A DNA stretch of 64,000 bases. It comes from a virus. The position numbers were made by a program, and so were the translations under genes. Below the pieces are notes generated by a model, which was not told where the DNA came from, made no database searches, and saw only the letters and a program-made list of their open reading frames with translations. The DNA lies in the IMG/VR virus record IMGVR_UViG_3300021400_000219, positions 57,970-121,969 of that record. One strand, written 5' to 3'. Within the stretch, counting starts at the first letter, position 1. Every line of letters begins with the position of its first letter. Shown here in pieces: positions 35,572 through 38,007 of the stretch.

Positions 35572-38007
35572 ATGCCAAAAAAATTTTTAGATGCTAATGG
35601 AGTAACTCATTTAATATCTTTATTAGATAATTATCCAGATAATGCTCTTTTAGGGAGTGTTATTGATGCTATAGAAGAAGAGTTAGATAGTAAAGTCTCT
35701 ATTTCAGGTGATACTATGACAGGTTCATTGGCAGTTAATAATAAAATAACATCTGTTGGATTAGATGCTGGCACTGGTAATATTATTACTACTGGTAATA
35801 TTAGTGGTAATGCTATTACTAGTAATTATGATATAACCGTAGGCCATGGTTATTTTATTATTAAGCCATATAGTAGTATTTATGATTCTACTGGTGAAGA
35901 TCCTGGTATTAGATTTTATTATAATCATGATAGATCTGGATATTTAGCAGATACTTTATTTGCAAATAAATCTATTTCTGCAACTAAATTTTATGGTGAT
36001 GGTTCTGGATTAACTAATTTAACAGTTATGACTGGAGCTACTTCATCTGCTGCAGGTGTCGCAGGCATAGTACCTACACCTGCAAAGGGTAAACAAACCA
36101 GTTTTCTCCGCGGAGATGGTACTTGGGTAGTACCTACAAATACAGATACTAAAGTTAATGTAACTCTTGACACTACTACTAAAGCATATCTACTTGCTAC
36201 ATCTACAATTCCTACTTCTACCGCAACAGCAGTAACATCTATAGCAGATACTGGAGTATATCTTGGTACCACTGTTGGTACACTTATTACTACTGGTAAG
36301 ATAACTTCTGTTGGATTAGATGCTGGAAGTGGAGCTATTAGTACTAATAATACGATTACAGGTTCAAGTGTTTCTATTACTGGTTAGAATGGATTAACTT
36401 TATCACGTATTGTAGATAACAAAACACTTCAAGCAAAATTATTTAAAAATGCTTCTAATTCTGTTGATTATGGCACACAAATTATTGATTATAGTATAAA
36501 TGATACTACTCAATATACAAGATTAGTAATACGCGATGCTGCTTCTACTAATAGTGGTAAATTATATTTAACTGATGAAGATTAGAATGTATACTATATT
36601 TATGGAGAACATAATAAACCAACATTAAATGATGTTACAAATTTAGTTACTGCTTTAGCTGGAAAATCAGATAGCAATCATACCCACTCCTACCTGCCTC
36701 TGACGGGTGGGACCTTGACGGGAGATGTGGTTATCCAACTGGATGCCGGATTCCCCTCTTTTTCCTTGCGAGCCCCGGAAAAAGAAGGCGTGGGGCGGGC
36801 CCGGATGATGCTATACAAGGAAGCCGGTAGTATAGACTATGGAACCTGGCTTATCGACTACACATGGGATAATTCCCTGAAGACGGCTCTCGTGCTTCGG
36901 AATGCTGCCGCAGATCTGCGGGATCGGCTTACTTTGCGAGATTATACTGGAAGCACGAGCACGATATATCATCTATTTGGCGAACACAACCTTCCGGCAG
37001 TGACAGATGTGGATGGCCTGCAGACGGCACTGAATGGAAAGTCGGATGTGAATCATACTCATTTTTCAGCTACTCCAACAAATAATCAAGTTGTAGTAGC
37101 AGATGGAACGAATGGATCGATTAAAACATCTGGATATACAATAGCTAAGAGTGTTCCAAGCACTGCAGTATTTACAGATACTAAAGTAACATAGACTATA
37201 AAAACAGACAATGTTGAAAGACCTATTTTAACTGCTCCATCAACATAGACTGATACTACAACAACTACGGCGGCATTTAGTACTAATATTACAGCTAATG
37301 CTTCTACTGGAGCGTTAACTGCTAAAAATTTAATATCTACGGCTGATTGTACTATAAATAGTGGCTATTTTACTATTAAACCATATAGTTCTTATTATGA
37401 TACAACTGGGAATCACGCAGGAATTAAATTTTATTTTAATCATAATAGAAGTGGTTATCATGCAGACACTTTAATAACTAGTTATAATCTTTAGGCAGGA
37501 GTTTATTATGGGGCAGATTTTTATTTATAGAATAATAATAAATAGTATGCACGAATGTGTATTACTACTATAGGAACTGCAGGCACTGGTTCTGCAAATG
37601 GCACTATGGGAGTAGGAAGTTTATATCTCGGTAATGCTACAGCAGTAAGTTCAGCTGCTTCAGAAGGTGCTGATAATGCTTATGGTAGACTTGTATTATA
37701 TGGAGCTGGAACAGATTATACAGTTTTACGAGCTAATCCTAATGGAAATCGTACTTGTTATCTACCTAAAGGTGCTGAAACAATGTATTTAACTTATAAA
37801 CCTAGCACTGCGGCTGTAGGTAGTTCTAGTGCAGGTGTTTTTATAGATGCAAATGGTAAAGCAACTGTAACAGGAAGTTCAGATATTCGTTTAAAAAACA
37901 TTGAAGGAATAATTCCAGATGTTTCAAAAATATCTGCCATTAAATTTAAATGGAATGAGTCATATGTGAATAGAGATAATAAAGAACATATTGGATATTC
38001 TGCTTAG
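35572..38007 (+). CDS. long tail fibre protein (about 811 codons including about seven TAGs)
   Basis: ORFs 35572-36387, 36715-37194 and 37555-38007 are all in frame 1 and joined by TAG codons. Tail-fibre motifs SGDTMTGSL and HTHSYLPLTGGTLTGDV. Contains a GC-rich island at 36690-37060. Confidence 0.65.

Follow-up and report, generated by a model that had tools for sequence, protein, structure and literature searches.

Tail fibres set which bacteria a phage attacks, and they evolve through module exchange. The tail-fibre gene described here is a clean yet ordinary case of a fibre built by swapping modules; it lies in a stretch of 64,000 nucleotides (nt) of the IMG/VR virus record IMGVR_UViG_3300021400_000219 (positions 57,970 to 121,969 of that record; hereafter the window), and within it a single module of 125 codons, module B, stands apart in base composition from the AT-rich sequence to either side. 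We consider it probable (roughly 80%) that this segment is one complete fibre module from a phage or prophage much richer in guanine plus cytosine (GC), recombined in frame into an AT-rich phage in which TAG is recoded. As such it is one more instance of a known principle, which it leaves unchanged.

In the T-even phages, exchanges in or next to the most conserved short motifs of the long tail fibre and adhesin genes (gp37 and gp38) bring interchangeable modules together in chimeric fibres (Tetart et al. 1996, 1998, as related in PMC3157838). The locus in the window is alike in that both of its joints fall in one and the same conserved motif, GKSD-x-NHTH. It departs from the T-even case in belonging to another phage lineage and in having another module fold, in that the unit concerned is a mid-shaft domain and not an adhesin specificity region, in that the partners differ by more than 20 percentage points in GC content, and in that recombination is here read from the sequence.

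A second point of comparison is provided by fibres of metagenomic phages and prophages (proteins P0001 to P0004) that carry tandem modules of the form LPLSGGTLTG...YGEHNKP together with PF12789. Module B matches these modules end to end at 47-56% identity, and one of the proteins, P0002, has a C-terminal Peptidase_S74-type region, as the window's fibre probably does. Whereas the genes for P0001 to P0004 are uniform with their own contigs of 46-66% GC, the window has a lone such module in a gene of 32% GC. Reading of TAG as glutamine (genetic code 15) is documented in gut phages, and code-15 phages such as the crAss-like group likewise combine a suppressor tRNA of anticodon CTA with a structural gene containing in-frame TAG codons (PMC9523058, PMC10879173); this likeness concerns the recipient genome and not the GC-rich module. 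Finally, islands of atypical composition, including those termed morons, resemble the segment as deviant blocks with sharp borders, and a whole-gene island of this sort is present at about 54650-55200 in the same genome. Morons, however, are added independent genes with their own signals, whereas module B is intragenic, in frame and a homologous domain.

A compositional step within the tail-fibre gene

The tail-fibre gene occupies positions 35572-38151 on the plus strand and comprises 859 codons and a TAA stop, with 10 in-frame TAG codons as sense, probably glutamine. Its compositionally foreign stretch, at 36682-37050 on the same strand, has a mean of 53-54% GC with a peak of 60%, and is marked by CTG, CGG, GTG and ACG codons. 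Strings that an earlier note on this DNA had quoted from the segment, and its HTHSYLPLTGGTLTGDV translation, are present where that note placed them; its estimate of 55-60% GC is slightly high, although the segment is clearly GC-rich. Outside the segment the gene is 32-33% GC, and the window as a whole 32.9%. The sliding-window analysis that had been proposed shows a composition that is far from uniform, with 100-nt windows at 50-60% GC from about 36650 to 37050 and at 21-37% to either side, and a maximum-likelihood fit of two breakpoints yields 36683 and 37045 as the edges of an interval of 54.3% GC.

This compositional contrast is carried mainly by third codon positions, that is, by synonymous sites. 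GC content at third positions (GC3) is 53.6% inside the module (67/125 codons) and 9.4% in the rest of the gene (69/734; Fisher P = 7.8e-28), and 30-codon windows along the gene give a clean step, from 0.00-0.23 outside to 0.40-0.63 inside, its edges being only a few nucleotides across. Across the three codon positions GC content is 0.60/0.45/0.54 in the insert; the gene sequence upstream of the insert has 0.41/0.46/0.08, and that downstream (to 38007) has 0.39/0.50/0.10. The choice of individual codons follows suit: leucine is encoded by CTG at 7 of 17 positions in the segment and at none of 44 elsewhere in the gene, arginine by CGG at 5/7 and 0/14, and valine by GTG at 6/7 and 1/41. For the 36 long open reading frames (ORFs) in the window, gene-wide GC3 lies between 0.10 and 0.41, and, tRNA genes aside, the separate island at about 54650-55200 is the only other 375-nt GC peak of comparable height. 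Synonymous composition and codon usage unlike those of the surrounding gene are what horizontal acquisition calls for.

Such a patch might also be functional where it stands, as an RNA structure, as a translational pause that assists co-translational folding, or as a hidden overlapping gene. CGG, CTG and ACG are rare in the rest of the fibre gene, and the second island keeps its GC-rich composition in diverged relatives (see below), so some patches of this genome are maintained. But no Rfam family matches the segment with E < 0.01 and none reaches its family threshold, the RNA fold has a z-score of -0.94 (21 of 100 shuffled sequences fold as well), and the sole antisense ORF is only 53 amino acids (aa) long. 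The amino-acid make-up is moreover shifted too, as the first-position GC of 0.60 attests, which goes beyond codon-level selection. Selection on a structural RNA, named in the earlier note as an alternative, thus finds no backing, and function in place, which could account for retention of the segment and not for its pattern of homology, appears unlikely.

Module boundaries and their reproducibility

Module B extends from 36688 to 37062 on the plus strand, its 125 codons running from SYLPLTGGTLTG to GKSDVNHTH and forming residues 373-497 of the 859-aa fibre. After SYLPLTGGTLTG come APEKEGVGR, DYGTWLIDY and FGEHNLP, and then a linker, VDGLQTALNGKSDVNHTH, that Pfam calls a PTR, or 'phage tail repeat'. 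HMMER matches cover residues 2-125, and AlphaFold2, given an alignment of 46 modules, predicts a six-stranded antiparallel beta meander at residues 24-95 and a helix at residues 111-121, with a mean predicted local distance difference test score of 90.5. Module B is a complete beta-meander domain with one PTR-type linker, and it defines a family of modules of about 125 residues with a confident predicted fold; among solved structures none specifically matches it.

The edges of the segment coincide with a direct repeat. A repeat search identified an imperfect pair of 27-nt copies (family D12; 78% identity), both on the plus strand, at 36660-36686 (encoding GKSDSNHT) and 37035-37061 (encoding GKSDVNHT); the copies are spaced by 375 nt, or 125 codons, in frame, and each encodes G-K-S-D-x-N-H-T. 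The change points at 36683 and 37045 fall within the copies of this repeat, so that the boundaries are sharp and lie at plausible recombination sites. Reading codon by codon, the 5' joint can be placed at about 36679-36684 (...GAT AGC AAT CAT | ACC CAC TCC TAC CTG...) and the 3' joint at about 37050-37058 (...TCG GAT GTG | AAT CAT ACT CAT TTT...). The left GKSDSNHTH and the right GKSDVNHTH have AATCATAC in common, and it is inside this shared element that codons switch between AT-ending and GC-ending at each joint; the microhomology amounts to AAT CAT AC, about 8 nt that code for N-H-T. Both the exchanged unit and its two joints can be seen at near-nucleotide resolution because the codon usage of donor and recipient is so different. 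We also considered H-x-H as a general module boundary and dropped it, as it is present in just 6 of 79 aligned modules.

Deletion of the 375 nt would yield a coherent ...GKSDSNHTHFSATP..., and an insert-free allele, if one exists, would read ...GATAGCAATCAT straight into ACTCATTTTTCAGC. Immediately after the insert, at 37063-37191 on the plus strand, lies a conserved FSATPTNNQVVVADGTNGSIKTSGYTIAKSVPS motif that is common to other metagenomic phage fibres, with 64-83% identity over 30-50 aa in loci L006-L014.

The window derives from a metagenomic assembly, and a segment like this one could in principle be a chimera, with reads from a GC-rich organism mis-joined into a phage contig. Contigs from three pipelines (JGI, ENA and Logan) are, however, 100% identical to the window across both joints, which argues that the joints are not chimeric. 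One contig of JGI sample 3300002641 (L003) spans the entire insert; two others from the same sample cover the left joint and end at 36781 (L004), or begin at 36764 and cover the right joint (L005); a further contig (L106, ENA ERZ28612966) comes from a scaffold of 174,221 nt, and the last (L107) from Logan SRR873599. All of these may stem from one project, and the end of one JGI contig and the start of another fall within the insert, as would suit a mis-assembly; yet this break is inside the insert and not at a joint. The segment is exactly 125 codons long, in frame, free of stops and homologous to its neighbouring domain, the same gene resumes after it, and a k-mer assembler could not twice cross a stretch as short as the roughly 8 nt common to the joints. 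A double mis-join through so short a sequence that kept both frame and domain homology is not credible, and we regard a chimera as highly improbable. The two JGI contigs overlap by 18 nt (36764-36781), which may reflect a dip in coverage or a branch in the assembly graph.

Homologues, origin and age of the module

A full HMMER scan of 1.84 billion representative proteins (E <= 1e-3) with module B returned 303 matches, the best of which are the fibre-like proteins P0001 to P0004, each with two to four modules in tandem. The match to P0001 (E = 3e-69) extends along the whole length of the segment. Identity to module B is 56% and 52% for the two modules of P0002, and 47-48% for the best modules of P0001, P0003 and P0004. 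The closest relatives thus reside in genomes whose composition deviates from that of the window in the same direction as the segment: the loci of P0002 (contig L015; GC3 of the gene 84%) and P0004 (L021) are 66% GC, that of P0001 (L020; GC3 of the modules 51-65%) is 49% GC, and that of P0003 (L018) is 46% GC. The gene for P0004 follows directly upon baseplate J and Tail_P2_I genes, which identifies its product as a true tail fibre. With its synonymous shift, its sharp edges in a repeated motif and its homologues on contigs of 46-66% GC, the segment bears out the proposal in the earlier note of a fibre module from a compositionally different source. The codon-position profile of module B would fit a donor of about 50-60% GC whose third positions may since have decayed somewhat.

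P0002 (L015-L017), which has the closest database match to module B, is encoded on a phage-like contig of 39.7 kb and 66% GC. This contig and the 174-kb scaffold that carries the fibre belong to the same BioSample series, SHIW14-1_SAMN02144230 (runs S004/S007; SRR873596 and SRR873599), so GC-rich fibres of the P0002 type co-occur with the phage. We take these accessions to be from a sheep rumen study.

Homology along the full length also bears on whether the segment is a mobile or mutagenic element, such as an intein, an intron or the variable region of a diversity-generating retroelement. It is a discrete in-frame insertion of the size of a mini-intein, and tail fibres are often targeted by diversity-generating retroelements. 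But it is homologous to fibre modules from end to end. Moreover, the only Pfam match is PTR, with no Hint or intein domain, and the segment ends in NHTH followed by F and not in HN followed by C, S or T; blastn (word size 7) and tblastn found no template or second copy in the 64-kb window; and there is no intron-type match in Rfam. An origin as a mobile or mutagenic element has a negligible probability.

The fibre itself provides an internal control. Directly upstream of module B, at 36430-36687 on the plus strand, lies module A, a native AT-rich homologue of the insert that was recognized by BLASTP, tblastn and composition and ends in GKSDSNHTH. It has 26.8% GC and a GC3 of 7%. Modules A and B share 45% identity over 89 residues by BLASTP (E = 2e-22; 41-45% across comparisons) and the motifs DYGT.IDY, YGEHN.P and GKSD.NHTH. 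As module A encodes the same motifs at a GC3 of 7%, selection on the protein fold or its motifs does not require a high GC content, which disposes of the second alternative raised in the earlier note. The likeness of the two modules is concentrated in the C-terminal linker, where the joints fall; the N-terminal third of module B (LPLTGGTLTG...APEKEGVGR) has no counterpart in module A. GARP residues make up 0.26 and FYMINK residues 0.19 of module B, against 0.14 and 0.32 of module A, and this GC-type make-up indicates what was probably a long residence in a GC-richer genome.

The presence of two adjacent homologues invites the view that module A was duplicated in tandem in situ and that one copy later drifted, or was driven, to high GC; within the match set of module B the module closest to A is B, and the two have shortened loops in common. 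No mutational process, however, lifts GC3 over a stretch of 369 nt to 54% from a starting level of about 8%, with edges sharp to the nucleotide and with flanks left at 7-10%. Synonymous sites between A and B are saturated, with the same codon at only 10 of 38 identical aligned residues, so B did not arise from A by recent duplication. Over the domain core (residues 39-103 of B) the closest modules are those of P0002 and not A, and the N-terminal third of B, which A lacks, matches the GC-rich relatives. In-situ duplication is therefore very unlikely. We note that the native part of the fibre carries internal direct repeats of its own, at 35742-35808 and 36297-36363 (78% DNA identity) and at 35847-35958 and 37362-37473 (76%), encoding KITSVGLDAG.G and GYF.IKPYSS.YD.TG...F.NH.RSGY.ADTL; these imply that the native part was itself assembled from duplicated segments.

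Taking the segment to be a captured foreign module, we infer that foreign DNA entered this phage rather than the reverse. The source would have been a fibre gene in a phage or prophage of far higher GC content, and recombination would have taken place at the short conserved motif that ends such modules, by way of the AAT CAT AC microhomology, with the left motif supplied by module A of the recipient and the right motif being that ahead of FSATP. The fibre would thereby have come to carry a tandem pair of homologous modules, either by addition of one or by replacement of a native one. The earlier note expected a likely effect on host range, which is not supported. Module B is in the middle of the protein, with about 270 residues of fibre downstream (the FSATP...SVPS motif and some 230 more) and then what would be a cleavable C-terminal chaperone-like domain, so the exchanged part is not the distal tip; any effect would most likely concern the length or geometry of the shaft, or come from an added lateral domain, and not involve the distal receptor-binding tip.

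Several observations weigh against the capture of a foreign module, or at least limit what can be said of it. Neighbour-joining places module B ambiguously: with all columns, A alone is sister to it in 31 of 200 replicates, and a P0002 module forms part of its sister group in 37 of 200, although the module set for the tree was seeded with B, which biases it against recovering A's own relatives. The two shortened loops that A and B have in common set both apart from the GC-rich relatives, and the donor may therefore be closer to this fibre lineage than is any database match. The assemblies that contain both joints may draw on read sets that overlap and belong to a single project. Searches for a donor were negative, the best relative having 56% protein identity, and 67% DNA identity over 183 nt. 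A BLAST search with the segment alone, as the earlier note had suggested, gave no match in distant-mode blastn against 50,697 GenBank phage records, and none emerged from exact-DNA and peptide-pattern scans of IMG/VR, from word-indexed protein searches seeded with module B or with an alignment that joined B to the P0002 modules, or from GTDB genomes scanned with that alignment and with P0001. Across GenBank phages, IMG/VR, JGI metagenomes, GTDB genomes and the protein collections we encountered neither parental sequences nor observed recombinants.

Relatives of the phage likewise yielded no insert-free or orthologous fibre in these scans. A search of IMG/VR with the N- and C-terminal ORFs gave only a 36-aa motif match, and a synthetic empty-site protein run against JGI metagenomes gave only distant fibres sharing the 40-aa FSATP...SVPS motif. 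None of the 80 IMG/VR relatives fetched, out of 180, through the neighbouring DUF2828 gene has the fibre. Mosaic fibres are the general pattern in this phage group: one such relative (L026), whose DUF2828-like protein is 73% identical, has only the first 41 residues of the fibre in common. Exact look-ups with the neighbouring small ORFs returned only JGI sample 3300002641 again.

The second GC-rich island bears on the age of the event. It spans about 54650-55200, at 49-61% GC amid flanks of 19-35% GC, and includes a helix-turn-helix-like gene of 134 aa (ORF 54797-55201, minus strand; GC3 0.59) that has homologues at 77-97% amino-acid identity. In the contigs examined for two of these homologues, from relatives of the phage (L023-L025; DNA identity 95% and 71-88%), this gene occurs in the same gene order, at 50-52% GC amid flanks of 32-37% GC. 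Relatives of the phage are represented in DRR595524 (95% DNA identity), ERZ28599016 and ERZ27270614. GC-rich patches can thus persist in this lineage, a foreign segment need not be a recent one, and GC-richness cannot date the event. The claim in the earlier note that acquisition was recent is accordingly not supported, given this persistence and given that the searches found neither a donor above 56% amino-acid identity nor an insert-free allele.

The recoded fibre gene and its surroundings

The earlier note had ended the fibre ORF at 38007. An ORF scan that allows TAG continues from 35572 in frame through the TAG at 38005-38007 to the TAA at 38149-38151, and past the TAG the reading is ...HIGYSA(TAG)DVEEIAPFLVSEDENGYK.... 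This C-terminal continuation matches the C-terminus of P0002 (DHIGYIAQEVEAVAPYLV) in an alignment by eye, in which the TAG corresponds to a Q of P0002, and an 859-aa protein on record at NCBI, ENA and Logan (P0160) is identical to the fibre translated with TAG as Q. The true end is therefore 38151. The in-frame TAG codons of the fibre gene are accounted for by a suppressor tRNA with anticodon CTA, encoded at 41018-41092 on the minus strand (ARAGORN; Rfam tRNA, 57 bits), which sits in an array of 23 tRNA genes. This tRNA(CUA), the 10 TAG codons in the fibre and the one aligned to a glutamine of P0002 are together the marks of a code-15 phage. A neighbouring ORF at 34686-35498 also requires two TAG read-throughs, and long minus-strand genes such as those for a ligase, a topoisomerase, a major vault protein-like protein and a DUF2828-like protein have no TAG. 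For annotation, standard-code ORF calling breaks the fibre into four fragments.

PTR (PF12789) is recognized in the fibre at 38.5 bits, against a gathering cut-off of 27, at residues 477-506, which correspond to module B's C-terminal linker. Precomputed domain matches on P0160 are PTR and a weak Peptidase_S74. A Peptidase_S74-like intramolecular chaperone region would occupy the C-terminus, at 37876-38148 on the plus strand (SSDIRLKNIEG...): the segment SSDIRLKNIEG...HIGY..QDVEE.AP.LV aligns by eye with P0002, which bears PF13884, while the precomputed PF13884 match on P0160 is only weak. Our own Pfam scan took the first 811 residues, up to the TAG at 38005, and missed PF13884.

Module B has no TAG in its 125 codons, as compared with 10 in the 734 of the rest of the fibre; a standard-code donor would give such a count, although the difference is not significant (P = 0.18). 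If the module was indeed captured, a late gene that uses TAG as sense can take in DNA of a different compositional background. One may speculate further, though we think it doubtful, that the insert records gene flow in a single direction between genetic codes, a whole fibre domain of a standard-code, GC-rich phage having been captured by a TAG-recoded large phage through about 8 nt of linker microhomology. On that view PTR or H-x-H linkers would serve universally as places where fibre genes with no other relationship can be spliced; recoded late genes would be free to import modules and yet unable to export them, since TAG is a stop elsewhere; and the several GC-rich patches of the genome would be an accumulated record of imports.

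The recipient is a large phage, with a scaffold of 174 kb, and the 64-kb window encodes topoisomerase II subunits, an NAD-dependent DNA ligase, an RNA ligase and other replication genes. Upstream of the fibre gene, an ORF at 34350-34682 matches PHROG 10588, 'tail protein'; no baseplate genes were identified beside the window's own fibre gene. Downstream, between the convergent fibre and DUF2828 genes, a hairpin (GGGGAAGAAGCT / AGCTTCTTCCCC) with a run of T, read by eye at 38157-38195 on the plus strand, resembles a terminator.

The gene beyond it, at 38198-39715 on the minus strand and beside the 23-tRNA array, encodes a DUF2828/DUF7788 protein that matches PHROG 850, 'RNA-binding protein' (E = 2e-136). 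Phage contigs of IMG/VR hold 180 relatives of this protein, and the 80 contigs listed are up to 201 kb long. In one of these (L026, positions 67-1605) the DUF2828-like gene is 53-59% GC amid sequence of 21-38% GC, another compositional patch. At 30765-33215 on the minus strand the window encodes an 816-aa protein with a major vault protein shoulder (PF11978, E = 1.8e-23) and Vault_3 repeat domains, which is unusual in a phage; its gene has a GC3 of 0.35, locally up to 0.6, over the norm for the genome. Lastly, an AT-rich element of about 50 nt (TTCCTTAACTTTCTATATATATTATATA...TTTAAAATTTCAAAT on the plus strand) occurs in at least 17 copies, all but one in the same orientation, among them those at 55236-55289, 43603-43654, 47433-47484, 50716-50767, 51101-51154, 41174-41225, 33229-33278 and 57123-57172, with about 10 more; the copies checked lie just upstream of the starts of minus-strand genes, and the element resembles a common promoter or 5' leader.

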